A model generated the notes under the pieces. The model searched no databases. It was not told where the DNA came from and was given only the letters and a program-made list of their open reading frames with translations. Source: an uncultured Candidatus Binatia bacterium (GTDB taxonomy: Bacteria > Desulfobacterota > Binatia > Bin18). From it: 64,000 nt of DNA. Each line of letters opens with the position of its first letter. Position 1 is the stretch's first letter. The stretch spans positions 1,984,001-2,048,000 of the forward strand of contig OZ243961.1 of assembly GCA_965214605.1 (NCBI GenBank), in the 5' to 3' direction. The position numbers were made by a program, and so were the translations under genes. Below are positions 1 to 23,246 of the stretch, in pieces.

Positions 1-78
1 AGCTACGGGGATTGATGTGATGGCATCGGTCGGATAAAAATAGTTGAGAAGATTACTCCGAGCTACGGGGATTGATGC
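1..78. CRISPR. Possible terminal repeat-spacer-repeat of a CRISPR array cut by the window edge
   Basis: AGCTACGGGGATTGATG at 1-17 and 61-77 (period 60). The full copy has a CTCCG/CGGGG hairpin followed by ATTGATG. Only about 1.5 units are visible and no cas genes are in the window. Confidence 0.3.
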
Positions 79-159
79 CTCCATGACGGTATTTCCGGAC
101 GGGCTCGATCAGCCGCGCCATCGGACTGGTGACAGACGTACGAACTTGCTCGCAACATC

Positions 160-403
160 AATACCCTGCCACAAGGCGATGTTCTTCGCCGAGAACGACG
201 CAAGCGGCAACCGGATCAATCACAAAGCAGCAATCTCGGGCGGCTTGCAGATCGTTCCTGCAGGGGCCGCGCGCCAAGTGCTCGCCGATGACTACGCGAG
301 AATGCTAGCCGACGGGATGCTGCTTGGCGAGAACGAGCCATTTGATGCGCTGATGGAGCGATGCGCGGCAATTGAGACGCGGGCCAACGGGTTGAAACCA
401 TGA
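160..403 (+). pseudogene. C-terminal fragment of an AbiEii/AbiGii-family nucleotidyltransferase toxin
   Basis: HKAMFFAE...GLQIVP...LADDYARM..DGML..E.FD.LM.RC resembles AbiEii C-termini. The N-terminal NTase core is absent. The stop overlaps the drmD start (ATGA 400-403). Confidence 0.65.
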
Positions 404-3400
404 CAGCGACCTCACCCGAACCCGGCCGGATCGCGCTGGTGCGCCAGCGCCGATATCTCGTGGAAAACGTAACGCCTCCTCCATCACCCACCGAAGCCAC
501 GCTCGTCGATCTCTCCTGTCTCGACGACGACGCGCAGGGCGAGCCGCTCTCGGTGCTGTGGGAGCACGAACTTGATGCCCGCGTACTCGAAGACGACGGC
601 TGGTCGGCAGTTGCCGACAAGGGATTTGACGATCCCGCCCTGTTCGCCGCCTACCTCCGCGCGCTGTCGTGGAACTGCGTGACGGCAACCGACCCGAATC
701 TCTTTCAAGCGCCGTTCCGTGCCGGCATCCGTATTGATGCCTATCAACTCGACCCGCTGCGCAAGGCGCTCAAGTTGCCGCGCGTGAACCTGTTCATTGC
801 TGATGACGTCGGGCTTGGTAAGACCATCGAGGCTGGCCTAATCGCGCGCGAGCTTCTGCTGCGCCGCCGTATCGACCGGATCGTCGTTGCATGTCCGCCT
901 GCGATGCTGGACCAGTGGCAGGACGAGATGGAAGCCCGTTTCGGTCTCACTTTCACCATTCTCGACCGGGCCTATGTGACGCGGATGCGCCGCGAGCGCG
1001 GCTTCTCCGTCAACCCCTGGACCACCCATTCTCGCTTCCTCATCTCCCACCGCCTTCTCATTGACGAGGCCCACGCTTCGGGCTTGCGTGACTGGCTTGG
1101 AGAGTTCGCCCCGCAATCCCTCCTAATTCTCGACGAGGCGCACAACGCCGCGCCCGCGAGCGGTGCACGTTACGCGATTGATTCGCAGATCACGCGCGCC
1201 GTCCGCGACATCGCGCCTCGTTTCGAGCATCGTCTGTTCCTGTCGGCGACTCCGCATAACGGGCATTCGAACAGCTTTTCCGCCTTGCTCGAAATTCTCG
1301 ATCCACAACGTTTCTGCCGTGGAGTCCGCGTCCTTAAGGGGCAGCTCGACGAGGTGCTGGTCCGGCGGCTCAAGTCCGATATCCGGGAACTCGAAGGCGG
1401 GTTCCCGAAGCGCACGGTGGCCCCGGTGAGAATCGACGGGCTGCCGCCGGACGCGCCCGAGCTCGTGCTGCCGAAGCTGCTGGATGCCTACCGACTCGTG
1501 CGCGAAGAGAGGCTCAAGAACGAATCACGCTCGCGGCAAACCGCCGGCGCATTGGTGATCGGCGGGCTGCAGAAACGTCTGCTGTCCTCCGTCGAGGCCT
1601 TCGCGAAGACGCTTTCGGTGCACCGCAAGAGCCTGGAACGTGTGTTGGAGAAGGCTTTGGCCGTCCCCACAACGTCGGCAGCGCCGCATGCCGATCTCCA
1701 ACGTTTGACTGTGGACATGGAGCCCGACACGGAGGTCTTTAGCGCTGACGATCAAGCTCTCGACATCGACGGCGAAACCATCCCACCGGACGATTCAGAA
1801 CGACCCGACCCGTCGGATCTCGAGTTGGCCGATCTCATGACGACGGCCACAGCGGCATCAAGCGACAGCAGCCAGACGGAGACGCGCGAGGCGCTAATGC
1901 GCGAACTCGCGCTTGTCGACGAGATGCGCGATGTGGCCGAGGCGAGCCGATACGGGGCTGACCCGCGCGTTCGCAAGATCATTGAATGGATCGACGCCAA
2001 TCTGTGTCCAGGTCTTGCAGCGCCCGGAGCAACACTCCCGCAATGGAACGATCGCCGCCTGCTTATCTTCACTGAATACGAGGATACGCGCCGATGGCTC
2101 CAGCGCTGCCTGAACGAGGCGATCGCGTGTTCCAGTCAGGCATCCAAGCGGATTGCGGCCTTCACGGGGATGACCTCCCGCCGAAGGCGGGAAGACATCA
2201 AGCACGCCTTCAACACCGAGCCGGGCGACGATCCGCTCCGCATTCTCATCGCGACCGACGCGGCACGGGAGGGCCTCAATCTCCAGCGCCATTGCTACGA
2301 CCTTTTCCATTTCGATCTGCCTTGGAACCCGAGCCGCCTAGACCAGCGTAACGGCCGCATCGACCGCAAACTTCAGCCCGCCGACGAAGTCTTCTGCCGC
2401 TACTTCGTGTTTGTTCAGCGGCCGGAAGATCGTGTTCTTCAGGTGTTGGTGAACAAGGTCGAGCGCATCCGGGAAGAACTTGGCAGCGTTGCCAAGATCC
2501 TCGAAGCCCGCGTCGCTCGGACCATTGGCGTCGAGGGCATGCGGCGCGACGGGCTCGACAGACTCGCGTCCAACATTCGGGATCTGTCGGCGAGCGAGCA
2601 GCGGCAAACCGTCGAGGAAGAGCTTGAGGACGCGCGTCTTCGCCAGGACAAGCTCCGCGAAGAAGTCGACGGCCTGCGCACACGCCTGGAACGCTCACGC
2701 ATGCATATTGGCATCGCTTCGTCACAGTTCCGCCAGACCCTCTCAATGAGCCTGAAGCTCGCCGGCGCGCCTGGGATCACGGCAACGGATCGGGATAGAG
2801 GGCAGGATCCCGACACCCCGCGCCGTTTTGTCTTTCCGGGAGATCACCGCGCGTTGGCAAGCGACTCCGGCTGGACCGCGGCACTCGACGCGTTGCGGGT
2901 GCGCAGACAACGAGGGGAGAGCTTTGGCGAGTGGCGCCGCCGGGCCTCCATCCGCCCCATCACGTTCGAAGACACCGGCCGGCTGGGCGAGAACGCCGTG
3001 CAGCTCCATCTCGAGCACAGCGTGGCCCGGCGCCTGCTCGGCCGGTTCACGGCACAGGGCCTGGTCCACCACGATCTGTCCAAAGCTTGCCTGACCGTTG
3101 CGCCCGATGCGATCCCACGAGTGGTGCTGCTAGGTCGCCTCGCCGTTTACGGACCGTGCGCCGCGCGCCTGCACGAAGAGATGGTGCCGGTCACGGCGCG
3201 CTGGATCGATCCCGAACGACGGCAGGACGCGCTCACGCCCTACGGTCGGGCCGGCGAGCAGACTACGCTGGCCTCACTGCAGTCGGCGCTCGACGAAGCC
3301 GGACAGGACAGCGTTCCGGATCAGGTGCGAGGTCGTCTCGCGGCATCGGCGCAGGCCGATATCGCGGATCTGCTGCCGCATCTGGAGCGACGGGCGGACG

Positions 3401-3714
3401 AATACGCGGAGCAAGCGAAGAGACGTCTTGCCGAACGGTCGGAGGCCGAAAGGCGCAGCATGATCGAACTGCTCAAGCGCCAGCGGAAGAGGATTGCCGA
3501 AGCCGTCAGCAAAAACGACCGACAACTGACGTTCGACTTCGATGCAGCCGAGCGGCGCCAACGCGAAGCCGATCGCCGCGCCTGGAGCCGGCGCCTCGAA
3601 GCCATTGAGACCGAGCTCGAGACCGAGCCGCGCCGGATCGCCGACACGTACAGCGTACGCGCCGTGCGCGTCGATCCGCTCGGCCTCGTCTATCTCTGGC
3701 CGCTGACGGGATAG
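400..3714 (+). CDS. drmD: DISARM SNF2-like helicase DrmD
   Basis: ADDVGLGKT, DEAH, SATPHNG, TDAAREGLNLQ and QRNGRIDR motifs; LFQAPFRAGI..DAYQL N-terminus; DISARM gene order. Confidence 0.93.
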   Translation: MTATSPEPGRIALVRQRRYLVENVTPPPSPTEATLVDLSCLDDDAQGEPLSVLWEHELDARVLEDDGWSAVADKGFDDPALFAAYLRALSWNCVTATDPNLFQAPFRAGIRIDAYQLDPLRKALKLPRVNLFIADDVGLGKTIEAGLIARELLLRRRIDRIVVACPPAMLDQWQDEMEARFGLTFTILDRAYVTRMRRERGFSVNPWTTHSRFLISHRLLIDEAHASGLRDWLGEFAPQSLLILDEAHNAAPASGARYAIDSQITRAVRDIAPRFEHRLFLSATPHNGHSNSFSALLEILDPQRFCRGVRVLKGQLDEVLVRRLKSDIRELEGGFPKRTVAPVRIDGLPPDAPELVLPKLLDAYRLVREERLKNESRSRQTAGALVIGGLQKRLLSSVEAFAKTLSVHRKSLERVLEKALAVPTTSAAPHADLQRLTVDMEPDTEVFSADDQALDIDGETIPPDDSERPDPSDLELADLMTTATAASSDSSQTETREALMRELALVDEMRDVAEASRYGADPRVRKIIEWIDANLCPGLAAPGATLPQWNDRRLLIFTEYEDTRRWLQRCLNEAIACSSQASKRIAAFTGMTSRRRREDIKHAFNTEPGDDPLRILIATDAAREGLNLQRHCYDLFHFDLPWNPSRLDQRNGRIDRKLQPADEVFCRYFVFVQRPEDRVLQVLVNKVERIREELGSVAKILEARVARTIGVEGMRRDGLDRLASNIRDLSASEQRQTVEEELEDARLRQDKLREEVDGLRTRLERSRMHIGIASSQFRQTLSMSLKLAGAPGITATDRDRGQDPDTPRRFVFPGDHRALASDSGWTAALDALRVRRQRGESFGEWRRRASIRPITFEDTGRLGENAVQLHLEHSVARRLLGRFTAQGLVHHDLSKACLTVAPDAIPRVVLLGRLAVYGPCAARLHEEMVPVTARWIDPERRQDALTPYGRAGEQTTLASLQSALDEAGQDSVPDQVRGRLAASAQADIADLLPHLERRADEYAEQAKRRLAERSEAERRSMIELLKRQRKRIAEAVSKNDRQLTFDFDAAERRQREADRRAWSRRLEAIETELETEPRRIADTYSVRAVRVDPLGLVYLWPLTG

Positions 3715-3717
3715 GTC

Positions 3718-6700
3718 ATGGCGGACCGCGAACGCCGCAACCTGATCTTCGCCCACCAGGAATGGCTGGGTTTCGTGCAGCCGGTGGGTCTCGTGGTCGC
3801 GCCGACCGTCATGGTCGACGCCCAGGTCGTACCGGACCGCAACGTTTCGGGACGCCAGCGGGAGTTTCGGGCGCTGTTCGACGCGAATGACGAGGCGAGC
3901 GTCGTCGCCGGTGTCTCGGAGACACGCGCAACGTACCGCGTCTCCGGAACTCCGCAGGGCTCCGTTCTGCATCGTGTGTTCCGGGAGTGGCTGGGCTGGG
4001 AGGACGACGACCTCGTGGAAGCGGAACGCCACCGCGACACGCTCGAAATCGCCCTGCCGGAATTGCAGGTGGTGCTCTCTCCGACCTGGGCCGTGCCGGG
4101 CGATCAGGATTCGGACCAGGCGTGGACGATGCTGATCCGGGTAGAGGACGAAGGAGCCGACTTCGACCAACCGCCCGGCGACGGCACCGGTTGGAATGCG
4201 AGCCGTCATGCCCGGTTCGAACGGCTGCTCCGGGAGACCGGCGTTCCGACCGGCCTGCTCTGCACCGATGAACGCATCCGCCTGATCCATGCGCCGGGAG
4301 GCGAGTCGTCGGGGCACATCACCTTCGAGTTCGCCCAGATGGCACTGCCGGCGGGCCGGCCCATCCTAGCCGCTTTCGAAATGCTTCTCTCGGCGGATGC
4401 GCTCTTCGGCGCCACCCCCGAGGCTGGCCTACCCGCGCTCCTGGCCAAGAGCCGCGATGCGCAGGCCGAAGTCTCAACGAAGCTCTCCCGCCAGGTGCTT
4501 GCCGCGCTGCATGAACTGTTGCGCGGCTTCGTCTCCGCCGACGCGCATGGCCAGGGGATCGTGACCGCGTTGGCGCGGCGCGATCCCGAACATCTCTACG
4601 GCGGGCTCATCACGACATTGATGCGGCTGGTCTTCGTTCTCTACGCCGAAGACCGGGGCCTCATGCCCGATCATCCGGTCTACCAGCAGCACTATTCCCT
4701 GGGTGGCTTGTTCGCCCGCCTGCGGGCCGATGCGGCAGCTTGGCCAGACACCATGGACCAGCGGTTCGGCGCCTGGGCGCAGTTGATTACGCTGTTCCGA
4801 CTGATCCACAGCGGCGGCGGTCATGCCAGACTCCGCTTCGTGGCGCGCAAGGGCGCGCTGTTCGATCCGGACCGGTTTCCCTTCCTCGAAGGGCGCGCGC
4901 CGGACCACGACCCGACGGTTCCCATGGTGCCGGACGCGACCGTCTGGAAAGTGTTGCAGTCTCTGATGGTGTTGGACGGCGAGCGATTGTCTTACCGTAC
5001 CCTTGATGTCGAGCAAATCGGTTCGGTCTACGAGGCTGTCATAGGCTTCCGCGTCGAGCTAACTACCGGCCGCTCTATCGCAGTGGCGTCACGGAAACGA
5101 ACCGGCGCCGCCGTTATCGTCGATCTCGACAGCCTGCTCTCACTCGACGGCGGCAAGCGCGCGAAGGCGATCCAGGACGCGACAGACCGGAAACTGACGG
5201 GCGCCGCCGTTGCCGCGCTCCGCAATGCAGCCACCGTCGAGGATGTGGTGGTAGCGATAGAGCGTAGCGTCGACCGCGACGCTACGCCCAATATCGTGTC
5301 GCCTCGAACGCCTGTCCTCCAGCCGACGGACGAGCGCCGACGGTCCGGCAGTCACTACACGCCGCGCTCCCTGACCGAGCCAATCGTTTCGGAAGCCCTG
5401 CGGCCGATATTGGAACGACTGGGGCAGGATGCCCGGCCCGAAGATATTCTCGATCTCAAGGTCCTCGACCCGGCGACAGGATCGGGTGCCTTTCTGGTTG
5501 AGGCCTGCCGTCAGCTGTCGGCCCGGCTGATCGAAGCGTGGAATCTGCACGACGGCCCGCCGGACCTGCCAGCCGACGAGGACGAGCTGCTGCACGCCCG
5601 GCGTCTCGTCGCCCAGCGCTGCCTCTATGGCGTGGACCGGAATCGAATGGCCATCGATCTCGCGCGGCTGTCCCTGTGGCTGGTGACGCTCGCACGCGAT
5701 CACGAGTTCACCTTCATCGACCACGCCCTGCGCCATGGCGATTCGCTGGTCGGCCTGACCCGCAACCAGATCGAAGGATTCCATTGGGATGCCGAATCGA
5801 AGGATTCCATTGAGATGCCACGGCCCCGATTTCAACTCGGCACAGAGACACCGGAAGTGCGTAAACATGTGACGCGGGTCTCCGAGATGCGTCAACTGAT
5901 CCGTGAACTCGGCGACGAGGCCCCTGAACACGAACTGCGAGAGCTTCTGGACGAGGCTGAACGTGAGCTCAGAAACATTCGCCAAGTCGCCGACTTGGTA
6001 CTGACTGCGTTCTTCGAAGGAGGGAGGCCGAAAGAACGCGAGAGCGTCCGGCTCAAATACGCGAGTCTGCTTCTTGAAGAGGACTGGGCTGCTACCGACT
6101 CGTGTGTGGCAACGAAGCTGCCGGTCGCACCGTTCCATTGGGAACCGGAGTTTCCCGAGGTGTTCGAGCGCGAGAACGCGGGGTTCGACGCGATTGTGGG
6201 TAACCCGCCCTTTGCCGGCAAGAACATGGTCGCCGCCGCGAACGTCGCCGGCTATTCCGACTGGCTCAAGCAGATGCACCCTGGGAGCCACGGTAACGCG
6301 GATCTCGTTGCTCATTTTTTCCGACGGGCATTTGGCCTCCTGCGCTCTGGAGGCGTGCTCGGTCTCATCGCCACCAACACCATAGGCCAAGGCGACACGC
6401 GCTCGACGGGCCTTCGTTGGATCTGCAGCAACGGCGGCACGGTCTATCGTGTCCAACGCCGCCTGAAGTGGCCCGGCGAGGCGGCGGTCGTGGTCAGCGT
6501 GGTTCACCTCATCAACGCAGCGGTGTATTCCGGGCCATGTCAGCTAGACGGCCGCAAGGTTGACAAGATTACCGCCTTCCTGTTTCATGACGGCGGCCAT
6601 GACGACCCGGCGCGGCTCGCGGCAAACGCAGGCAGGAGCTTCGTCGGCAGCTACGTCCTCGGCATGGGATTCACCTTCGATGACACCGACACCAAGGGCG

Positions 6701-7761
6701 TTGCTACGCCGTTAGCGGAAATGCGGCGGCTGATCGCTGAAGACCCGCATAACAGCAACGCCATCTTTCCCTATATCGGTGGCAAGGAGGTTAACACGAG
6801 CCCGACTCATGCGCACCATCGGTATGTCATCAATTTCCGGGACTACCCGCTGCGGCGGAAGGAGCTGGGAGCGACATGGCAAGACACCGATGACGGACAG
6901 CGCCAGCAATGGTTGCGTGTGGGAATTGTGCCCCTCGACTATCCGGCTCCGGTGGCGGCTGACTGGCCGGACCTGCTGACGATCGTCGAAGAGCGCGTGA
7001 AGCCGGCCCGGGCGCATCTCACGAACAACCCCATCGGCCGTAAACGCTCCCAGTTCTGGTGGTTGTATGGCTCACTCGCTAAGGAACTCTATGCTTCGAT
7101 AGCCAGCCTAGACCGCGTGCTTGTAATTTCAGAAGTTGGGCAGCACGGGGCGTTCGCCTTCTTGCCAAGTAACATGGCCTTTTCTCATACACTCAACATC
7201 TTCCCGCTTGACACCTATGCCGCCTTCTGCGCCCTCCAGTCACGCCCTCACGAGATCTGGGCACGGTTCTTCGGTTCGTCGCTGGGAGATCAACTCCGCT
7301 ACACCCCCTCGGACTGCTTCGAGACCTTCCCCTTCCCCGAGACGTGGGAAAGCCACCCCGCACTTGAAGCCATCGGCAAGGCGTACTACGAATACCGCGC
7401 TGCGCTCATGGCCCGAAACGGCGAAGGCCTGACCAAGACCTACAACCGCTTCCATAATCCCGACGAAGAAGACGCGGATATTGTAAAACTCCGTAAGCTC
7501 CACGCTGCAATGGACCGCGTTATTCTCGCTGCCTATGGCTGGCCTGACGTTCCTACCGATTGCGAGTTTCTGTTGGATTGGGAGATTGACGAAGAAACCT
7601 GGGGCAAGAAGAAAAAACCCTGGCGCTACCACTGGCCCAATGAAATTCGCGACGAGGTGCTCGCGCGCCTGTTGTCCCTGAACGCCGAGCGCGCGGCCGA
7701 GGAACGACTGACCGGAAGCGATGGTCGCATCCGAGCCGGGAACACCAAGGCCGCCTCATGA
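3718..7761 (+). CDS. drmMI: DISARM class I N6-adenine DNA methyltransferase DrmMI
   Basis: GSHYTP, DPATGSGAFL (motif I), GNPPF (motif IV), C-terminal MmeI-like target-recognition region (RYTPSDCFETFPFP); lies between drmD and drmA. Confidence 0.92.
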   Translation: MADRERRNLIFAHQEWLGFVQPVGLVVAPTVMVDAQVVPDRNVSGRQREFRALFDANDEASVVAGVSETRATYRVSGTPQGSVLHRVFREWLGWEDDDLVEAERHRDTLEIALPELQVVLSPTWAVPGDQDSDQAWTMLIRVEDEGADFDQPPGDGTGWNASRHARFERLLRETGVPTGLLCTDERIRLIHAPGGESSGHITFEFAQMALPAGRPILAAFEMLLSADALFGATPEAGLPALLAKSRDAQAEVSTKLSRQVLAALHELLRGFVSADAHGQGIVTALARRDPEHLYGGLITTLMRLVFVLYAEDRGLMPDHPVYQQHYSLGGLFARLRADAAAWPDTMDQRFGAWAQLITLFRLIHSGGGHARLRFVARKGALFDPDRFPFLEGRAPDHDPTVPMVPDATVWKVLQSLMVLDGERLSYRTLDVEQIGSVYEAVIGFRVELTTGRSIAVASRKRTGAAVIVDLDSLLSLDGGKRAKAIQDATDRKLTGAAVAALRNAATVEDVVVAIERSVDRDATPNIVSPRTPVLQPTDERRRSGSHYTPRSLTEPIVSEALRPILERLGQDARPEDILDLKVLDPATGSGAFLVEACRQLSARLIEAWNLHDGPPDLPADEDELLHARRLVAQRCLYGVDRNRMAIDLARLSLWLVTLARDHEFTFIDHALRHGDSLVGLTRNQIEGFHWDAESKDSIEMPRPRFQLGTETPEVRKHVTRVSEMRQLIRELGDEAPEHELRELLDEAERELRNIRQVADLVLTAFFEGGRPKERESVRLKYASLLLEEDWAATDSCVATKLPVAPFHWEPEFPEVFERENAGFDAIVGNPPFAGKNMVAAANVAGYSDWLKQMHPGSHGNADLVAHFFRRAFGLLRSGGVLGLIATNTIGQGDTRSTGLRWICSNGGTVYRVQRRLKWPGEAAVVVSVVHLINAAVYSGPCQLDGRKVDKITAFLFHDGGHDDPARLAANAGRSFVGSYVLGMGFTFDDTDTKGVATPLAEMRRLIAEDPHNSNAIFPYIGGKEVNTSPTHAHHRYVINFRDYPLRRKELGATWQDTDDGQRQQWLRVGIVPLDYPAPVAADWPDLLTIVEERVKPARAHLTNNPIGRKRSQFWWLYGSLAKELYASIASLDRVLVISEVGQHGAFAFLPSNMAFSHTLNIFPLDTYAAFCALQSRPHEIWARFFGSSLGDQLRYTPSDCFETFPFPETWESHPALEAIGKAYYEYRAALMARNGEGLTKTYNRFHNPDEEDADIVKLRKLHAAMDRVILAAYGWPDVPTDCEFLLDWEIDEETWGKKKKPWRYHWPNEIRDEVLARLLSLNAERAAEERLTGSDGRIRAGNTKAAS

Positions 7762-10700
7762 CCCTGACTTCTACCCCCACCTTCAACGATAGCGCCTGCG
7801 TCCGCGACTATCTGGTGGAGGCATTGCGGTTCGACCTGATCGGTCCGCGCCCCGGAGACAACGTCCTTGGGCATGAATACCTGCCGCACGCGCCGTCTCG
7901 CTGGTACCTGACCGGGTTCCTGGCGCCGACGGGCGCACCGGGTGCCCAGCGGGCGCAGGATGCCGAAGAGGAACTCGACGAGCCGTCCGAGCCCACCCAG
8001 GGAAGCGACGATGCGAGCACGCCGGAGCGCGGCAGCGGCAAACGCGCCTTTCTGCCCTCGTCCATGGGTCTGAGCGTTCTGACGGACGCGTCCGCCAAGC
8101 GCCTCGACATTGCGCTGTCCTGGGGCGACTACGCGCCGGAGGAAGAGCCGGCACGCAATGCCGCAAACCAGGGCGACGAACCCGGCGATGATGCGGCCCC
8201 GGCCCGGCGCCGCTTTGCGCCTTGGGTCCGCCATCCGCGTGCAGAGACCATCTACATTGATCTGGAGGCGATTCAAGCTGGGACACCGGTTCGGGTCGAC
8301 GTGCCGGACAGTGGCGGTCTCGAGATTGTTTGCCTGGTTCGACAGACCTGGGTTCGAGAGGTCGAGGGCAATCTCGATGCCCGCGCCGTCTCCCTGTTCG
8401 TCGTCAACCGGCGCCCGGCACCAGAGGACGACGATCTGCAGGACACGGCCTTCGCATTTCAGGTCGAAATGAGTCTTACCGCGGATCGGCCATTTGTCCC
8501 GAGACACGACCCGCGCGGCCTCGAAAGCGACGACTGGGACGAGCGACTCGCCGACCTGCATTACCGGGACGCGGCGGAATACGCGGTTGGTCACAATGTC
8601 TCCACCTGGGCGGGCACATCCGATGGCGCATGCCGTCGGGTGCATACCGAATGGATGCCTCGCGCCGCAGTAGAACGCGTCAAACCATCGGAAATCCCAG
8701 ACGTCGAGTTCGGCATGGAGGCGCTCGGCACCCTAGAGGACGCGGCGGATGCGAAGCGGTCGCTGAACCCGCTGGTCCGCGCTTATCGCGATTGGATTGA
8801 GGACCAGCACGAGAAAGCGCAAGCCTTCTCCGGCGGGCGCCGGGAGGTCGCGGACGAGCTGGTGAGCAGGGCTACCCGTGCGGCGGATCGCATCCAGGCC
8901 GGCATCGATCTGCTTGACGATCCCGACCTGCTGGGTGCGTTCCGCATCGCCAACCGCGCCATGGCGGAGGCGGCGCGGCGGCGAAGGGCGCAGGAGGAGT
9001 GCATCCCGCCTGAAGCGGTAAACCCGCCTGAGTGGCGTCCCTTCCAGCTCGCCTACATTCTGATGAACCTTCGCGGAATCGCCGAGCCGACCCATGTCGA
9101 GCGCGAGATCGTCGATCTGCTGTTCTTCCCCACCGGCGGTGGCAAGACCGAAGCCTATCTCGGGCTGGCAGCGTTTACGCTCGTCCTGCGCCGTCTGCGC
9201 GATCCCGACCCGGTCCATCGCGGTCTGTCGGTACTCATGCGCTACACGCTCCGCCTTCTCACTCTCGACCAGCTCGGGCGCGCCGCGGCGCTTATTTGCG
9301 CGCTCGAGCTCGAGCGCGAGGCTGCACCCGGAGAACTCGGAACATGGCCGTTCGAGATCGCGCTCTGGGTGGGCCGCGCCGCGACGCCCAACCACATGGG
9401 CCAGAAGGGCGATCGGTCCAACGACACCGCACGCGCGAAGACGTTACGATTTGCGCGCGACACCTCGCGCGATCCGCCACTGCCGCTGGATCGGTGCCCC
9501 TGGTGCGGCACGAAATTCGGAAAGCGTTCCTTCCGCCTGGACCCTGACACCGATAACCCGAAAAATCTGTCGGTGTGTTGCGCAAACCGGCGCTGCGATT
9601 TCGCGGGAAAGCGTCACCTGCCCATCGTTGCAGTGGACGAGCCAATCTACGAACGCCTGCCGGCCTTCATGATCGCGACCGCCGATAAGTTCGCCGCCAT
9701 GCCGTGGAGCGGCGAGACGGCGGGTTTCTTCCGGGGCGGCGACGCGACCGACCCGCGGCCGCCCGACCTCATCATTCAGGACGAGCTGCATCTCATCTCG
9801 GGGCCGCTTGGCACCATGGCAGGGCTTTACGAAACAGCGGTCAACCATCTCTGCCAACGCCAAATCGACGGCAAGGAAGTGCGCCCGAAGATCATCGCGT
9901 CGACCGCGACCGTGCGCCTCGCCCAAAAGCAGATTCGCGCCCTGTTCGGTCGCTCCTCTGTGGCAGTGTTTCCTGCGCCGGGGATTGAGCGGCGGGACTC
10001 GTTCTTTGCCGAACAGGCGCCGCAACAGGAGGTGCACCCGCGGATCTATCTCGGCATCGCCGCGCAGGGTCGCGGGCCAAAGGTCATCTTCCTGAGAAGC
10101 ACGATCACGCTGATGGCCGCGGCTCAAGCTGCCTGGAACGCCGTGACCGGCGGCGGCGTCAACCCCGCCGATCCCTACATGACGGTCGTCGCCTACTTCA
10201 ATGCCCTGCGCGAACTGGGGAGCGCACGGCGCATTGTCGAGGACGAGATCGGTTCGCGCCTTCTAACCTATGCCGGCCGCAAGCGCCTCGACGATGCAGC
10301 CGGGCTGTTCGCCGACAGACGGATCGCCTTCGAGCCGGTCGAGCTGACCTCGCGCGTTGGTACAGCCAATGTCGCCGACGCCAAGCGCCGGCTCTCCCTC
10401 GACTTCACTGACAAGGAACGCGTGGACGTGGCTCTAGCCACGAACATGATCTCCGTCGGCCTCGACATCACACGGCTCGGCTTGATGCTCGTCTCCGGCC
10501 AGCCGAAAACCACGGCTGAATACATCCAGGCTACGAGCCGCGTAGGCCGCGATCCGGCGCGGCCCGGCCTGATAGTGACTCTCCTAAATGTCCATAAGCC
10601 GCGTGACCGCTCGCACTATGAGCGCTTCTCCGCCTGGCACGACTCCTTCTATCGTGGGGTCGAAGCGACCAGCGTCACACCGTTCTCTCCGCGCGCCCTT

Positions 10701-12944
10701 GATCGGGGCCTGCCAGCGATCACGGTCGCTCTGGCAAGGCTCGGAATCCCGGAGTTGACACAGATGTCCGCAGCCCGGGGCGTCAAACATCACGGCACGG
10801 AGACCGCGGCCCTTGCGCAGGCAGTTGCCGACCGGGCGCAAAACCACGCCGACGGTCTTCCTGACGGCTTCGGCGGTCACGTCAGGAACCGCGTTCAGAG
10901 TCTGATCGACGATTGGGTAAGGCTCGCCCATGAAGCGGCACAGGGCGGCGTGGCGTTCGGCTACGCGCGGGGCACTGGCACTTCGACTCCCTTGTTGCGG
11001 GAGATGATCGACCCGGATCGCGAGCGGCTGACCGACACCCAGCTTCGGTTCCGGGCGCCCCGTTCGCTGCGTGACGTAGAGCCGGGGGTGCTGCTCGGCA
11101 TTAAGACTCCTGAAGGACGGGACATCCGTAGGTTCCAGATGGCCGACAATATCCTCCGCCAAAGCCAGCTGATCACGACTTATGGCCCCGGAGCCATGAT
11201 CGATCTTCCCGAGTACTCGGTCATCGTCTCCGGGCTGCGGGACTGGTCCCACTTGCGGCGCGAAAAAATCGACGAGCCGCGCCTCGTCGCCAAGCTGCGG
11301 CGGTTGTTGGGCGTGCCCTCACTCGACCTCCGGACGCCGCAGCGTCACGAAGAGAACGCCCGGCAGGCCGCCGTGGGTGCACGCATCTTCCCGACCTGGT
11401 TCATCGTCAAGGACGCGAGGCCCTCGCCCCGCAATGCGCAGTGGCGGCGGCGCCGGCTGGTGCGACGGGATTATCTCGACGAGCTCCAGTTCCGGGATGA
11501 AGATGGCAGGCGCAAGCCGGTCGTGCCGGTGCGCTTCGTCTGCGGCTGCCGGCGCGGCCATATCGACGATCTGGACTGGCGCCGGTTCGTCCATCAAAGC
11601 GGCAGGACGTGCGAGCGTCCGCTCTGGCTCGAGGAACGCGGGACCGGTGCTGACATCAGCGACACCTTCGGCGTGTGCGACTGCGGTGAGGAACGCTCGC
11701 TCTACGAAGCGTCGAGTCCCGGAACCGGCGCCCTCGGTCACTGCGAGGGTAAGAGGCCTTGGATTGGGCAGTTCGCACGGGAAACCTGCGGCGAACCCTA
11801 TCGGTTGCTTGTGCGTACGGCGAGCAACGCGTACTTCCCTCAGACGATGAGTGTCATCTCCTTGCCTGAGTTCGATGCCGGATTGGCCGCGAAGGTCTCC
11901 ACGCACTATGACCGCCTGAAGGCGGCTGATGATCTGGGCATGCTCGCGAACTTCCGGATGATGCCGGAACTCGACGCCGCGTTTCACGACGTCGGCGATG
12001 AAACCGTGCTCGCCGAATACCGACGGCAGAAGGGCGGTGGCGAGCGAGAAGACGTTCCGGTCAAGACCGCGGAGTTCGAGATTCTCGACAAAGGCGACGA
12101 CTTTATCGGGGAGAATGACGCTCACTCTAAGTTCTACGCTCAAACGCTACCGCGTAACGATTGGGATCCCAACCGGCATACTCTCCTTGCCACCGTCGAC
12201 AAGCTGGTACTGGTGTATCGCCTGCGGGAAGTCGTCTCGCTTTTGGGATTCACAAGGTTTGAGGCAATCAGCCCGGACAAGGACGGGGAACTCGACCTCG
12301 ACGTTATCAGGGCCTCGCTCGCCGAAACGATCACCTGGTTGCCAGCGGTCGAGAATCAGGGCGAAGGCATCTTCCTGTCGTTCAAAACCGAAAAAATAAA
12401 GAGATGGCTAGCACGCCCCGGCGTCCAGGCACGTGGAAAGGTGCTCCTGGAAGGCTGGCAAACGTGGGCCGTAGAGCGCCACCGTCCTAAGGACGGGTTT
12501 CCCGGTCTACCCTATGTAATGCTGCATTCGCTCTCGCACCTGCTGATGACCTCAATCGCGCTCGACTGCGGCTACCCGGCCAGCTCTTTGCGCGAACGCG
12601 TCTATGCGGGCGACGGAGGCTACGGCATATTGATCTATACCGGATCGTCCGACTCTGAAGGGACACTGGGCGGATTAGTCGAGACGGGGCGACGTCTTGC
12701 CGTGTATTTTCAGCGTGCTCTTCACAGCGGCCGCTTGTGCTCTAACGACCCGGTGTGCGCGGAACATGCGCCCGACTCCCAGCTTGAGGGCCGCCTGTTG
12801 CAAGGAGCCGCCTGTCACGGCTGCCTTCTCATTGCCGAGACAAGTTGCGAACAGCGCAACGATTTTCTCGACCGGGCGCTTGTTGTTCCGACGGTCGGTC
12901 TCGGGGATGCCTCCTTCTTCGATCTTTCCGAGCACGGATCGTAA
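7758..12944 (+). CDS. drmA-drmB: In-frame fusion of DISARM helicase DrmA (aa 1-1127) and DUF1998 protein DrmB (from ATG 11139)
   Basis: DrmA part: FPTGGGKT, QDELH, STAT, ATNMISVGLD, QATSRVGR. DrmB part: LRQSQLITTYGPGAMIDLP start and DUF1998 Zn motif CSNDPVC...GAACHGC...SCE. No stop codon between them. Confidence 0.9.
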   Translation: MTLTSTPTFNDSACVRDYLVEALRFDLIGPRPGDNVLGHEYLPHAPSRWYLTGFLAPTGAPGAQRAQDAEEELDEPSEPTQGSDDASTPERGSGKRAFLPSSMGLSVLTDASAKRLDIALSWGDYAPEEEPARNAANQGDEPGDDAAPARRRFAPWVRHPRAETIYIDLEAIQAGTPVRVDVPDSGGLEIVCLVRQTWVREVEGNLDARAVSLFVVNRRPAPEDDDLQDTAFAFQVEMSLTADRPFVPRHDPRGLESDDWDERLADLHYRDAAEYAVGHNVSTWAGTSDGACRRVHTEWMPRAAVERVKPSEIPDVEFGMEALGTLEDAADAKRSLNPLVRAYRDWIEDQHEKAQAFSGGRREVADELVSRATRAADRIQAGIDLLDDPDLLGAFRIANRAMAEAARRRRAQEECIPPEAVNPPEWRPFQLAYILMNLRGIAEPTHVEREIVDLLFFPTGGGKTEAYLGLAAFTLVLRRLRDPDPVHRGLSVLMRYTLRLLTLDQLGRAAALICALELEREAAPGELGTWPFEIALWVGRAATPNHMGQKGDRSNDTARAKTLRFARDTSRDPPLPLDRCPWCGTKFGKRSFRLDPDTDNPKNLSVCCANRRCDFAGKRHLPIVAVDEPIYERLPAFMIATADKFAAMPWSGETAGFFRGGDATDPRPPDLIIQDELHLISGPLGTMAGLYETAVNHLCQRQIDGKEVRPKIIASTATVRLAQKQIRALFGRSSVAVFPAPGIERRDSFFAEQAPQQEVHPRIYLGIAAQGRGPKVIFLRSTITLMAAAQAAWNAVTGGGVNPADPYMTVVAYFNALRELGSARRIVEDEIGSRLLTYAGRKRLDDAAGLFADRRIAFEPVELTSRVGTANVADAKRRLSLDFTDKERVDVALATNMISVGLDITRLGLMLVSGQPKTTAEYIQATSRVGRDPARPGLIVTLLNVHKPRDRSHYERFSAWHDSFYRGVEATSVTPFSPRALDRGLPAITVALARLGIPELTQMSAARGVKHHGTETAALAQAVADRAQNHADGLPDGFGGHVRNRVQSLIDDWVRLAHEAAQGGVAFGYARGTGTSTPLLREMIDPDRERLTDTQLRFRAPRSLRDVEPGVLLGIKTPEGRDIRRFQMADNILRQSQLITTYGPGAMIDLPEYSVIVSGLRDWSHLRREKIDEPRLVAKLRRLLGVPSLDLRTPQRHEENARQAAVGARIFPTWFIVKDARPSPRNAQWRRRRLVRRDYLDELQFRDEDGRRKPVVPVRFVCGCRRGHIDDLDWRRFVHQSGRTCERPLWLEERGTGADISDTFGVCDCGEERSLYEASSPGTGALGHCEGKRPWIGQFARETCGEPYRLLVRTASNAYFPQTMSVISLPEFDAGLAAKVSTHYDRLKAADDLGMLANFRMMPELDAAFHDVGDETVLAEYRRQKGGGEREDVPVKTAEFEILDKGDDFIGENDAHSKFYAQTLPRNDWDPNRHTLLATVDKLVLVYRLREVVSLLGFTRFEAISPDKDGELDLDVIRASLAETITWLPAVENQGEGIFLSFKTEKIKRWLARPGVQARGKVLLEGWQTWAVERHRPKDGFPGLPYVMLHSLSHLLMTSIALDCGYPASSLRERVYAGDGGYGILIYTGSSDSEGTLGGLVETGRRLAVYFQRALHSGRLCSNDPVCAEHAPDSQLEGRLLQGAACHGCLLIAETSCEQRNDFLDRALVVPTVGLGDASFFDLSEHGS

Positions 12945-13597
12945 TGAAATTCGATGCCTTGGTGGCGGCCGACCGGCAGGACCTCATCCGCCTGGCTGGC
13001 CTGCTGGAAGCCGGCCTTCTGTCACCGCCCTTCAGTGCGCTGTCGCTGTGCGACCACATTGCCGCCGCACACGCCGACGCGGTGGCGCGGTGCTTCGGAG
13101 AACTCTCGCAACGGGACATGCCTCCCAGCCACATCGCGCTCCTGCTTCGCGCCTTCGCCGCCGGCGCACAAGCGGCCGGCGGTTCCTCATTGCCCGTCGA
13201 AGTTGTAGTCAGCGGGCCGGATGCGGCCGGCGGCGCACGCGATACCGGCGTGGTAATGCGGCAACTGTTCGGCAAGGCGCGCGAGCGAGTGTTGGCCGTT
13301 GGTTTCGCGAGCGAATTCGTTCGCAACGAGCGGCCCGGTAAGCGCTTGCCACGCGTCTACTACGACCCCCAGTCGCTGGAACCCGCAGGCCGCACGGCCA
13401 GTTCGATGCATGCCAAGTGCGTGATCATCGACGGTCGGGAGGCACTCGTGACCTCGGCGAACTTCACGGAAGCCGCACAACAACGAAACATCGAACTCGG
13501 TCTTCTGGAAGATTCGCATGGCATCGCGGGTCGAATCGAGAAGCATTTCATATCTCTAACTCAGAACGGCTTTCTTAATCGGATCCCGCTTCCCTGA
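12944..13597 (+). CDS. drmC: DISARM phospholipase D nuclease DrmC, probably internally deleted (217 aa)
   Basis: HAKCVIID (HxKxxxxD), SANFT, NIELG; TAATG coupling to drmB; abrupt VGFA|SEFVRNE join. Confidence 0.85.
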   Translation: MKFDALVAADRQDLIRLAGLLEAGLLSPPFSALSLCDHIAAAHADAVARCFGELSQRDMPPSHIALLLRAFAAGAQAAGGSSLPVEVVVSGPDAAGGARDTGVVMRQLFGKARERVLAVGFASEFVRNERPGKRLPRVYYDPQSLEPAGRTASSMHAKCVIIDGREALVTSANFTEAAQQRNIELGLLEDSHGIAGRIEKHFISLTQNGFLNRIPLP

Positions 13598-13728
13598 TCC
13601 GAATTCCACAGTGCCCAAAATGCCGAGGTACCACATCATGTGAGATGAAAATTGCTCATCCAGTGCTATCTTCACAGAGGAGCATTTCTCGCCGCTCTGT
13701 CGGACTGCCGAGGACGCCCCTTCGTTCA

Positions 13729-13803
13729 TCAGAATGGAGGAGCCACTAACGAGTCACACCAGTGGATGCGCCCGTTCCACAGCCAGAAATGGGAGCCGCA
13801 GTC
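13729..13803 (-). pseudogene. DUF6527-like C-terminal remnant
   Basis: A minus-strand frame missing from the ORF track reads DCGSHFWLWNGRIHWCDSLVAPPF*, matching the CxSHFW...G.I.W terminus. Confidence 0.6.
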
Positions 13804-13804
13804 C

Positions 13805-14416
13805 CTTCATGGTCGAATTCAAAACGCAGATGACGTTGCGCTTTTCCATGCGGGCGTCATCCACGATGAGGAGCTCACCAACACACAGACGCTGTAGCTG
13901 TTCGATAACGAGACTGCCCGTCTCCGAAGCGCCAACGAAGGCGACCGACAAGCGCCGCATCCGTTCGATAGTGCTCTCGCCGAACATCTGCGCATCCGAC
14001 GCGACAAAGCGGGGCGACCCCGCACCGCCCGAATCGGCATACCAAAAGTCAAGGTTATCGCCCGCGACTGCAATACAGTCTATGGGTTCCGACGCCTTGC
14101 CGGACCTCAGCACTCGACCGAACATCACCCCGTCGGGAAGCATTACCGCGCTTCCGTGCGCAATGTCCGCTTCCACCCACCCGCGGATCATCAGCAATAG
14201 GCGAGCATCGCCCTCATTGTCGGTCGCTGAGAACGCCGCGCCGCTCGAAGGATGACTGTGCACTTTGACCACCGACAGTCCTTCCTCGGCCACGCGGTCG
14301 AGCATTGGGGTGACATACTCCGGCGACCACGTAACCTGGGTGGCCGTGCGTTCGGAGCAGCGATCGTAAGGTATGCCTTGAATCTCCCGCACGGTTAGGC
14401 GCTCGCGCCTGTCACC
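13805..14416 (-). pseudogene. Truncated JAB/MPN peptidase-ThiF/E1 fusion of a prokaryotic ubiquitin-like system
   Basis: KVHSHP...FSATD JAB motif, then SVAFVGASETGSLVIEQLQRL.VGELLIVDD (degenerate E1 GxGxxG motif). Both ends are truncated. Confidence 0.75.
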
Positions 14417-14971
14417 CTGCTGCGGGATAGTGCTGCGGCTATGGTGTCGAAGTCGCGCGGGCTGCGCGCCTCGAAGAAGGGCGACCAGCGGGGTCTCCGG
14501 GCATTGAGCGGGTTGAGCAGCGCGTCGCGGCCGGGATCGTGGAACGCGCGGAGGTAGCTCCCCATCTTGTCGTAGACGACGCAGCGCTCCCCGCTCGCGG
14601 ATCTGGGCGACGAGGGCCGAGAGCAGCACGGTCTTGCCCAACCCCGTGGTGGATGGTGTGCTAGGTCACGGCGCGCTCCGGGTAGGGGACGCCCGCGATC
14701 CGGTAGGGAGCGCGTTTGGGCGTGGCCGAGACGAGGTCACGCGGCGGCGGTGGAGCGGCCGGATGCGGCGGGCGAGGTCGCGCGTCATGGCGAGCTCCGC
14801 GCTCCTGATGTGGCGCCCGGCCTGAAGCTGCTGCCCCCGCACCCAGAACAGGGCTAGGAACAGCCCGGTCGCGAGCGTGGCGAGCTTCAGCCCCGCCGCC
14901 ACGCCGAAGTTGTGAACGAGATATGTCCGGGCGGGGCCCTGAAAGGCTTTGATCGTCTGCATGAGTGTCAT
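14417..14971 (-). pseudogene. traD: Frameshifted fragment of a type IV coupling protein (TraD/TrwB family)
   Basis: TM segment, then PYRIAGVPYP, GKTVLLSALVAQIRERG, VVYDKMGSY, LLNPL...WSPFFEARSPRDFD..AAA.IPQQ spread across frames. Confidence 0.75.
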
Positions 14972-15236: not shown

Positions 15237-15254
15237 TATAGCGGATGCGCTATA
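15237..15254. promoter_or_regulatory. Palindromic operator upstream of the TA pair
   Basis: TATAGCG-GATG-CGCTATA perfect 7-bp inverted repeat 8 nt before the toxin ATG. Confidence 0.45.
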
Positions 15255-15262
15255 TATCGGGA

Positions 15263-15567
15263 ATGGATTGGACGGCCGCAACCGTGTCGGCCGTTGCCGC
15301 CGCAATGGCGGCTTTGCCCGTGGCGTTGCGCGCCCGGCGGCTGGAGATGGTGGAGCATGGCGAGCGGGAGGCTCTTCGTGCACCCCATGTCAGGCTTCTC
15401 GACGGGAAGCTCTGGGAGCTTCGGGGGCGGGCCGAGGGCGGCATCGCGCGAGGGATCAACGTGACGGCGGGTGGGGGTGGTGCATGTCTTCGCCGAAGCA
15501 GTCGCGCAAGAGGCCGCGTCGGGCGGTCGCGACCGCCTGGGAGCGGCTGCGAAAGGGGATGCCCTGA
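15263..15567 (+). pseudogene. Decayed RelE/ParE (Gp49-like) toxin
   Basis: PHVRLLDGKLWELRGRAEGGIARGI, then VVHVF and KQSRKRPRRAV in shifted frames. Confidence 0.7.
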
Positions 15568-15728
15568 CGAAGCGGAAGGACCTGAAGAGGCGCTTCATGG
15601 CGGCCCCCAAGTTCCGGGAGGAGTACGCGCGCGGCGACGGGGAGTATGCGCGGATCGAGGCGCTGGTGCCCCGTACGGCGGCGAAGCTGACGCAGGCGGC
15701 TGCCCGTGGGTTTGGGGCCGACGGCTGA
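15564..15728 (+). pseudogene. Decayed HTH (HigA-like) antitoxin
   Basis: DLKRRFMAAPKFREEY...IEALV.R.AAKLTQ; start codon lost and gene truncated. Confidence 0.6.
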
Positions 15729-16206
15729 GGCCGGCGACAGGCCGGCAGCGGGCGCGGGCGAACGATTTCCAGCGCCGACGGGGTTTCGCACGGCTACGCC
15801 TGGGTTGGAACGAATCCGCTTTCAGAATGATTACGAAGTTTTCAGATGATATCGTATTCTATTGAAATAGAATAATAATCTTCACATCATGGCATTCCAG
15901 GCTGGCACCCGGTCAAACAGCCCCATGGTTTCCTGGGTAAAATCCCTCTTGATCGGCACCCCAGATATCAACCAACAGAACAATCGTCTCACGATACGTT
16001 TGTTCGCTCCCCTCCAACGACTGACGCTTTCCGGTGGGCTTGTTAACATCAGACACGATGGCGTTCCAGTTCCACTGGCCGGCCACCGATCTTGGTCCAG
16101 TAAGAAATTGAGCTCTGTTTCTTACTTATTGCCGCGGGCAGGTAAGAAATGTTACGAAGTTATTAGTCGGAGCGGCGAGCCGTCTTTAACGACAGACAAC
16201 GAAGGC

Positions 16207-22419: not shown

Positions 22420-22718
22420 ACTGCTTCTCCTTTCTCTGCGAGCTTATCACCGCCATACTCCCGGAGCAGGGCAAAAGTCAAGACTTCCCTGACTGCGACA
22501 CCGGGGCGGTTTTTAGCAGTCCGGAAAATCGGCCTTTTTCTCGTCTTCTTGTTGCCGGAGCGCTTGATCCCCAATACACCGCTTTTACCTTGCCAGCCCT
22601 GATGCGTCTCTTGCTTCACATCCCGATTCCGCCTACCTTGCCGGCTTAGTTAGTTGCCCGTAGCGTCTGGCCGCTCCGTGGAAAAAATGAGCGCTCCAAC
22701 TCAATAATGAGGATAAAC

Positions 22719-23246
22719 ATGCGAAAATTTCGTCTCGCCCCAGCCTATCATACCGAACCGATTGTTTTCGGCTCCCAAGGACCGGCCTTCTCAACGCTAC
22801 GAATCGGCCAATGGGTGACCTATATGAAAGAGCAGGGCATCAAACGCGTCTGCTGCCTCCTGCATCAAGACCAGCTCCGCTCCTACAAGGAAAACCTGCT
22901 AGCCGTATACACCAAAGAGTTTGGATCGCACAATGTGTGTTGGGCTCCGATCGCTGACTACCACCTGTGCGACGTGGGTCTGCTCAAAGAACGGATTCTG
23001 CCCTTTCTCAAGGAGTCGGATCAAAACGACCAACCGGTGGTGGTCCACTGTTATGGGGGACGCGGACGGGCTGGCCAGATTCTGGCCGCATGGCTGATCT
23101 TTGGCCGGGGATTTCCGGTTACAGATGCCATCGCAGCAGTCAAAGAAATGGGCCGTAATCCCCATGAAGCGGCCGATTGGGGCAACGCCGAACCCGAGGA
23201 CTTGTACACCTTGCTAGAAGCCTGTCAATCCAGTCCGATTGTCTAG
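22719..23246 (+). CDS. Dual-specificity/tyrosine protein phosphatase
   Basis: VVVHCYGGRGRAG (CX5R) motif and PIADY acid loop. Confidence 0.88.
   Translation: MRKFRLAPAYHTEPIVFGSQGPAFSTLRIGQWVTYMKEQGIKRVCCLLHQDQLRSYKENLLAVYTKEFGSHNVCWAPIADYHLCDVGLLKERILPFLKESDQNDQPVVVHCYGGRGRAGQILAAWLIFGRGFPVTDAIAAVKEMGRNPHEAADWGNAEPEDLYTLLEACQSSPIV

Follow-up and report, generated by a model that had tools for sequence, protein, structure and literature searches.

A one-base deletion joins drmA and drmB in a complete class 1 DISARM operon of an uncultured Candidatus Binatia bacterium

A DISARM defence operon with an unusual architecture is encoded in DNA of an uncultured Candidatus Binatia bacterium (GCA_965214605.1, contig OZ243961.1, positions 1,984,001 to 2,048,000 of the forward strand). 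This whole stretch of 64,000 nucleotides (nt) is referred to below as the window, and coordinates are those of the window. The locus is a complete class 1 DISARM operon, drmD-drmMI-drmAB-drmC, in which DrmA and DrmB are joined in one polypeptide. It contains the SF2/YprA-like helicase DrmA, the DUF1998/MZB protein DrmB, DrmC, and the class 1 markers DrmD and DrmMI. DISARM is described as carrying the helicase and the DUF1998 module in separate adjacent genes, a descriptive trait and not a formal criterion; here, a single open reading frame (ORF) at 7758-12944 encodes both. Comparison with close relatives points to a recent, natural one-base fusion within an otherwise complete operon, the product of which is probably still functional.

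An earlier interpretation of this DNA, made from the letters alone and called here the sequence-only reading, had described the helicase and the DUF1998 protein as one ORF, and the ORF list, PADLOC profiles and Pfam domains agree with it. Across the junction, the protein reads ...GIKTPEGRDIRRFQMADNILRQSQ. Matches to DrmA profiles stop at residue ~1116-1123, and matches to DrmB profiles start beyond this point. The DrmA part matches PADLOC PDLC02575 (E 1.5e-270, best stretch on profile positions 390-829 of 837), and the DrmB part matches PDLC02583 (E 5.7e-73) and PDLC02584 (E 2.8e-60, residues 1286-1721 on positions 7-442 of 445). Pfam places Helicase_C at residues 878-931 and MZB/DUF1998 at 1592-1690. 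The characteristic motifs are intact, including Walker A GGGKT and DELH in DrmA, the Cys cluster of DUF1998, NPPF in DrmMI and HxK in DrmC.

At the nucleotide level, bases 11120-11149 (ggacatccgt aggttccaga tggccgacaa) are read by the ORF as GAC ATC CGT AGG TTC CAG ATG, giving D I R R F Q M. A TAG at 11129-11131 lies out of frame (offset 3371 = 3x1123+2) and is followed by the seven bases GTTCCAG (11132-11138) and then by an ATG (11139-11141) that is in frame (offset 3381 = 3x1127) and encodes residue M1128. An AGGT word occupies 11130-11133. The sequence-only reading had located all of these elements correctly. It had also proposed that a 1-bp deletion created a covalent DrmAB, and that one added base would restore two genes.

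Related loci uphold both proposals. A scan of species-representative genomes yielded 25 loci (L010-L034) with 70-86% amino acid (aa) identity over the junction piece, of which 24 enter the DNA alignment of the junction; L034 was excluded, as its two halves match ~500 nt apart. In all 24 aligned loci, GAC ATC NNN is followed by a stop in frame (TAG or TAA), and drmB starts with ATG or GTG after 2-9 nt of spacer. The window alone is one base short in the NNN codon, with ATCC-GTAGG in place of ATCCCGTAGG or ATCCAGTAGG, so that the fused allele ATCCGTAGG stands against the split form ATCCNGTAGG. Separate drmA and drmB frames were confirmed by ORF analysis in 22 of the 24; in the remaining two, L026 and L011, the in-frame stop was seen on translating the frame that bears RDVEP. 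The single missing base supports a 1-nt deletion in the last drmA sense codon as the event that joined drmA to drmB, and the alignment shows this deletion to be peculiar to the window's lineage among close relatives.

The protein ends of split relatives tell the same story. The nearest split DrmA, P0010, shares ~86% identity with the window's protein in the DrmA columns used for the tree described below (proteins drawn from a 5.8-billion-protein collection). The closest split DrmAs measure ~1120-1150 aa and end in '...GIKTPEGQDIP', '...GRDIS', '...GQDIQ' or '...GREIP', with the C-terminus 22-24 residues past RSLRDVEP. They end one residue beyond the '...GRDI' of the window, exactly where the window's ORF reads on. 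As DrmA ends in proline in the three nearest tree relatives (P0012, P0008 and P0010), the simplest and most likely event would be the loss of one C from ATC-CCG-TAG. Taken together, the closest split relatives (P0008, P0009, P0010 and P0012; L010-L033) have the same operon and a junction piece 70-86% identical to that of the window, and differ from it in that their last drmA codon has one base more, their stop is in frame and their drmB is a gene of its own.

Several of these loci have features of their own. In L010, L016 and L011, drmB lies in the frame of drmA and is parted from it only by the stop and a spacer of 6 or 9 nt, so that one nonsense-to-sense substitution would fuse the two genes; this arrangement may be a cause of recurring fusions in the clade. 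In L026, L027, L028 and L011, the drmB frame is open for hundreds of codons upstream within drmA (1591 codons in L026). Such alternative-frame ORFs are typical of GC-rich DNA and can mislead fusion calls based on ORF length. In L034, from a Vicinamibacterales metagenome-assembled genome (MAG), the drmA tail lies at 4751-4815 and the drmB head at 5321-5376, ~500 nt apart, reflecting either an insertion between drmA and drmB or a rearranged region.

The position of the fused protein among its relatives was traced with a FastTree tree built on DrmA columns only (query residues 1-1115), comprising 121 rows, namely the query and its 120 best matches. At least four changes between fused and split labels are needed on this tree, also when only well-supported branches are counted. 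Within a supported clade (98) of 15 rows, the window is the only fused tip, and the other 14 rows are split. Two further fused tips, P0005 and P0006, also stand alone, at other places in the 49-row clade that includes the window, and their linkers differ ('DISKGNSAAENILRQSQ' and 'KRIGEGKTPQDQLRQSQ'). The remaining 21 fused rows fall into two diversified clades, one of 13 rows and one of 8. Owing to score bias, split rows at an equal distance are missing from the tree, so that either deep clade may include split members as well; the fused P0007, for instance, has a split relative in genome G041 with 70% identity in DrmA and 64% in DrmB. Gain and loss of fusion are not separable by the tree itself, and for the window it is the DNA comparison that decides. 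With the protein nested among split DrmAs and a 1-nt deletion explaining the join, the window's fusion is, on these comparisons, secondary. It accordingly differs from the primary single-chain YprA/MrfA-like helicases, in which the two modules are in cis by descent.

Fused DrmA-DrmB proteins are also present elsewhere in databases. Both halves are present in 23 of the 120 best matches to residues 900-1400, 20 of them 1689-1812 aa long and three of them fragments of 964-1203 aa. Two of the fused proteins bear the NCBI name 'DISARM system helicase DrmA': one is from a Bryobacterales MAG, and the other, P0062 (1778 aa), is encoded on a 10.8-Mb contig of Singulisphaera sp. Ch08. The fused P0007 (1746 aa) is a protein of a Bryobacterales MAG. 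An exhaustive search of 50%-identity representatives with a 601-aa junction piece matched 5432 proteins, and a single-stretch match over the junction was found in 15 of the best 150, six of which are 1679-1812 aa long. Six fused proteins were tested against profiles; in each, the match to a DrmA profile extends to the end of that profile, and a match to a full DrmB profile follows 15-20 residues further on. Both lists of best matches are biased towards fusions, in which the two halves add to one score.

The database fusions resemble the window's protein in being joined at the same place, between RSLRDVEP... and ...TTYGPGA. They differ from it in several ways: P0062 and P0007 are only 42-47% identical to it over residues 900-1400, and the linkers of the database fusions are different, somewhat longer and without an internal Met, whereas the window's linker is RRFQ. 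They represent old, diversified fused clades, while the fusion in the window is a separate and recent event. Fused DrmAB is a rare, recurrent variant of DISARM that is already in databases unremarked. The suggestion that this architecture was undescribed therefore holds in part. It is rare, and no description of a fused DrmAB within DISARM was found in the accessible literature, PMC11529989 included, in a search that the original DISARM paper lay outside; as database entries, however, such fusions already exist, two of them named after DrmA. Fused genes named 'DrmA' alone in public annotation may lead rule-based defence finders to miss DrmB.

One apparent further fusion, in genome G058 ('open frame 1762'), was rejected, as its drmA is broken and a separate drmB of 617 aa follows. 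In this locus (L151 = G058:C1:5738000-5757000), two overlapping ORFs, at 8596-11013 (805 aa) and 10649-12004 (451 aa), precede the intact drmB. Either this DISARM copy has suffered a frameshift or the assembly is wrong at this point.

In the proposed mechanism, the loss of one base takes translation out of the frame that ends at the drmA stop; reading then continues across the 7-nt spacer and enters drmB at its start codon. The predicted product is one 1728-aa chain made of DrmA (1-1123), RRFQ, and DrmB (from M1128), and this chain would still act as the DrmAB DNA sensor and translocase. Gene expression certainly changes: since ribosomes no longer halt 7 nt before the drmB start, termination-reinitiation coupling is removed and the stoichiometry of the DrmA and DrmB modules is fixed at 1:1. 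The ATG is retained, with an AGG Shine-Dalgarno-like word six bases upstream, so that some free DrmB might be made as well. That the single chain still works as the sensor and motor of DISARM is somewhat more probable than its failure. This view is based on the persistence of older fused lineages, on the fused state being usual elsewhere in the YprA family (PMC12458937), and on the integrity of all motifs. In other DISARM lineages the fusion has survived long divergence, and the linkers there are similarly short.

Structural data are compatible with such a join. DrmA and DrmB form a stable complex, and in the solved complex the C-terminal 'pivot arm' of DrmA wraps the N-terminus of DrmB (PMC9142583). 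The fusion therefore joins two ends that are already adjacent. An AlphaFold2 model of residues 1001-1728, built from 50 aligned rows, has a mean predicted local distance difference test score (pLDDT) of 89.1 and a predicted template modelling score (pTM) of 0.87. The block that contains the DrmA tail strand (1110-1116) has a pLDDT of 93, the junction block (1121-1130) 74, and the next block 92, which is consistent with a tolerated short loop at the junction. Sequence comparison pairs the DrmB part with chain 7s9v_B (E 9.4e-22), and the model of this part superposes on the same chain (Foldseek E 2.4e-41, template modelling score 0.80 by target). The DrmA tail of the window gave no sequence match to the solved DrmA chain.

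The fusion might be an artefact, the missing base being a sequencing or assembly error, such as a contracted run of C, with drmA and drmB truly separate. The likely ancestral ATCCCG has a run of three C, the assembly consists of few, long contigs (9 contigs, 4.37 Mb), and all nearest relatives have the extra base. The allele was followed in public sequencing runs, 11 of which, with no RNA run among them, are listed for window positions 10400-11900; five contain at least half of the sampled words, and four were compared through contigs assembled independently of the window's assembly. Three belong to study P1, namely X1 (contig 10400-11411, depth 17.4), X2 (10442-11411, depth 75.8) and X3 (10440-11379, depth 6.2), and one, X5 (10540-11297, depth 6.2), to study P2. 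Each has 0 other letters and 0 gaps across the junction. Indels relative to the window were absent from 11110-11145 in these contigs and occur in rows at 11367-11370 only. Contigs drop rare variants, and one run may be the assembly's source. Even so, the junction is exactly reproduced by four independently built contig sets from two studies, at depths of 6-76; a three-base run is not a typical error site, and no other frameshift is present in the 13-kb operon. An error private to one assembly is very unlikely, and the deletion is present in a natural population. The assembly-indel alternative that the sequence-only reading had left standing is thus largely excluded, and separate genes hidden by a lost base are scarcely credible.

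The same runs also contain other junctions. X1, X2 and X3 have diverged contigs that leave the window just after 11127, where …ATCC gives way to CGTAGGCGCCCGATGGCC… or to AGTAGG…, and these contigs continue 'CGTAGGCGCCCGATGGCCGACAAC...' or 'AGTAGG...'. They represent split relatives that belong to other organisms of these communities, in which carriers of the fused and of the split operon therefore occur side by side.

A genuine deletion could nevertheless be harmful or neutral. In this case, the tether or RRFQ would disturb the pivot arm or the loading of DrmB, and the copy would be impaired, with decay already begun. Several observations point in this direction and weigh against a functional fusion. 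The window is the lone fused tip beside its 14 split relatives, and its allele is identical wherever seen, with no later divergence; this marks the event as recent, with no sign of maintenance by selection. Where loci were sampled without score bias, fusions are absent: 0 of the 24 genome loci, 0 of 65 junction-spanning metagenome loci (80 fetched), and 0 of 20 junction-spanning loci on viral contigs (22 analysed). The metagenome and viral contigs were scanned with a profile built from 10 fused proteins, and L148, where the match covers residues 6-560 only, is excluded from the junction counts. Among 25 plasmid records listed, none is annotated as a single gene; 24 match in two pieces, and H16 matches in one piece yet is annotated as two genes. 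No junction-spanning match was found in the class of G041 in the 19 genomes with a match (301 sampled), and no stop-free one in the window's phylum in the 9 genomes with a match (400 others). Such rarity could reflect usual selection against the fusion. Broken drmA genes do occur in relatives, as in G058 (805 + 451 aa). The old fused clades, seen as proteins, have a presumed DISARM operon context, and an AlphaFold2 model of the fused chain cannot show that pivot-arm allostery survives a covalent link. Decay, however, fits poorly with two halves and three other genes that are all full length and with motifs intact, with independent lineages that retain the fusion through long divergence, with the same allele in two studies, and with a junction placed where both proteins already touch in the solved complex. 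An impaired copy is on balance unlikely.

The fusion may instead be partly cosmetic, with separate proteins still made: free DrmB from an internal start at ATG 11139, and DrmA through a -1 slip at ATC-C. The drmB start and the AGG six bases upstream are unchanged relative to split relatives, and a -1 shift after ATC would read CCG-TAG and restore the ancestral '...DIP*'. The site lacks a slippery heptamer and a downstream structure signal, however, and internal starts in a translated ORF are usually weak. Moreover, this possibility is compatible with a working single chain and does not replace it; as a full account of the locus it is improbable, even more so than decay. A recent one-base fusion that still yields a working DrmAB is therefore retained as the preferred reading. 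A stronger version of it takes the covalent DrmAB to have full function and to have reached fixation in a natural population; together with at least three other independent fusions in the DISARM clade, it would show that the mechanism can do without the split. This version is tentative and falls a little short of an even chance. If true, pivot-arm allostery would work in cis, and the switch from split to fused could be adaptive, for example through 1:1 stoichiometry or by resisting phage factors aimed at the DrmA-DrmB interface. Finders that demand a separate DrmB match might then score such operons as incomplete DISARM.

The genes of the operon are given in the table. Five DISARM families are encoded in four tightly packed ORFs on the + strand, with spacing between a 3-nt gap and a 4-nt overlap according to the ORF list, and the ATG of drmC shares one base with the drmAB stop (TAATG). 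A promoter and terminator scan of window positions 1-14000 gave a site count not above that of shuffles.

Table. Genes of the DISARM operon and parts of the fused drmA-drmB frame
Feature	Coordinates	Strand	Description	Basis
drmD	400..3714	+	SNF2-type helicase, 1104 aa; Pfam SNF2-rel_dom + Helicase_C	PADLOC DrmD PDLC02621, E 0, residues 3-1101 on profile 10-1034 of 1040
drmMI	3718..7761	+	N6-adenine DNA methyltransferase, type IIG/Eco57I/MmeI kind, 1347 aa; 4-nt overlap with next gene	PADLOC DrmMI PDLC02643, E 0, residues 11-1336 on 8-1323 of 1347; Pfam Eco57I, MmeI_Mtase, N6_Mtase, MmeI_TRD
Fused drmA-drmB ORF	7758..12944	+	1728 aa + TAA stop; ATG start	
DrmA-homologous part	7758..11126	+	Residues 1-1123, C-terminal end ...GIKTPEGRDI	PADLOC DrmA profiles
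Linker RRFQ	11127..11138	+	Residues 1124-1127	Last drmA codon minus one base + old stop + 7-nt spacer, read in drmB frame
Old drmA stop TAG, out of frame	11129..11131	+		Aligned with in-frame TAG/TAA of 24/24 relatives
DrmB-homologous part	11139..12941	+	Residues 1128-1728, ancestral drmB ATG first (MADNILRQSQ...)	PADLOC DrmB profiles
drmC	12944..13597	+	PLD-family nuclease, 217 aa	PADLOC DrmC PDLC02587, E 1.4e-51; Pfam PLDc_2

The distribution of related operons suggests mobility. Relatives of the junction piece (70-86% aa identity) occur in MAGs titled Alphaproteobacteria, Gammaproteobacteria, Bryobacterales, Vicinamibacterales, Terriglobia, Dehalococcoidia and SAR202. The best match within the window's own phylum reaches only 55% in a sample of 400 genomes, and a genome of the same genus, G002, carries a split pair at 38-43%. 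From these identities, the operon looks like one recently transferred across phyla. Directly downstream of drmC come two ORFs that may be what is left of further defence or toxin-antitoxin modules within this island. One (13754-14641, - strand) is 295 aa long and has a prokaryotic JAB domain together with no more than the first ~50 positions of a ThiF/E1 domain (below the Pfam cut-off); the other (15245-15865, + strand) is Gp49/HigB-like. Upstream of drmD, and ~0.9-1.5 kb before the window begins, a 195-aa ORF (L158 10546-11133; G000:C1:1982546-1983133) contains HTH_33/HTH_32 domains of the kind found at transposase N-termini. It lies within ~3 kb of small, unassigned ORFs that separate housekeeping genes (amidohydrolases and major facilitator superfamily, MFS) from drmD. 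Similar amidohydrolase and MFS genes are found beyond the island on the downstream side, which gives the DISARM block the look of an insertion. The upstream stretch L158 showed no tRNA gene. Further away, among metabolic genes, a 179-aa ORF (22707-23246, + strand) carries a dual-specificity phosphatase domain of the polymorphic-toxin kind (Pfam Tc-R-P, PTP-SAK).

Among known systems, the class 1 DISARM of Serratia sp. SCBI (7S9V, 7S9W; PMC9142583) has the same five gene families as the window. In Serratia, DrmA and DrmB are two chains, whereas in the window they form one polypeptide through RRFQ. Moreover, DrmA comprises ~1123 residues in the window, while the Serratia protein reaches at least residue 1319 (PMC9142583). 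YprA/MrfA-like helicases share with the window's protein a helicase core and an OB-CON-DUF1998 module in one chain; relative to this comparison group, the window's protein has no C-terminal nuclease domain, and MrfA is only a weak fold match to its model (6znp_A, E 0.012). The literature describes DUF1998 in general as occurring 'either as adjacent genes or as C-terminal fusions' (PMC9142583), and DruE and ArmC are said to 'resemble a DrmAB fusion' (PMC13463889). The fused state is typical of the YprA family, and DISARM 'consistently' splits the helicase and the DUF1998 module into separate genes (PMC12458937); the supplementary table of YprA-like helicases in that paper contains 'DISARM' 3,487 times, without protein lengths. 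DISARM is the sole branch of YprA-family defence helicases described there as always split, and the present locus is a clean exception found in nature. Its one-base cause is known and its split relatives are close, and it provides an isogenic-like pair for asking whether DrmAB needs two chains. Together with the database matches, it indicates that fused DrmAB arises repeatedly and can persist. The locus is a modest variant of DISARM in its architecture and adds no new type of system.

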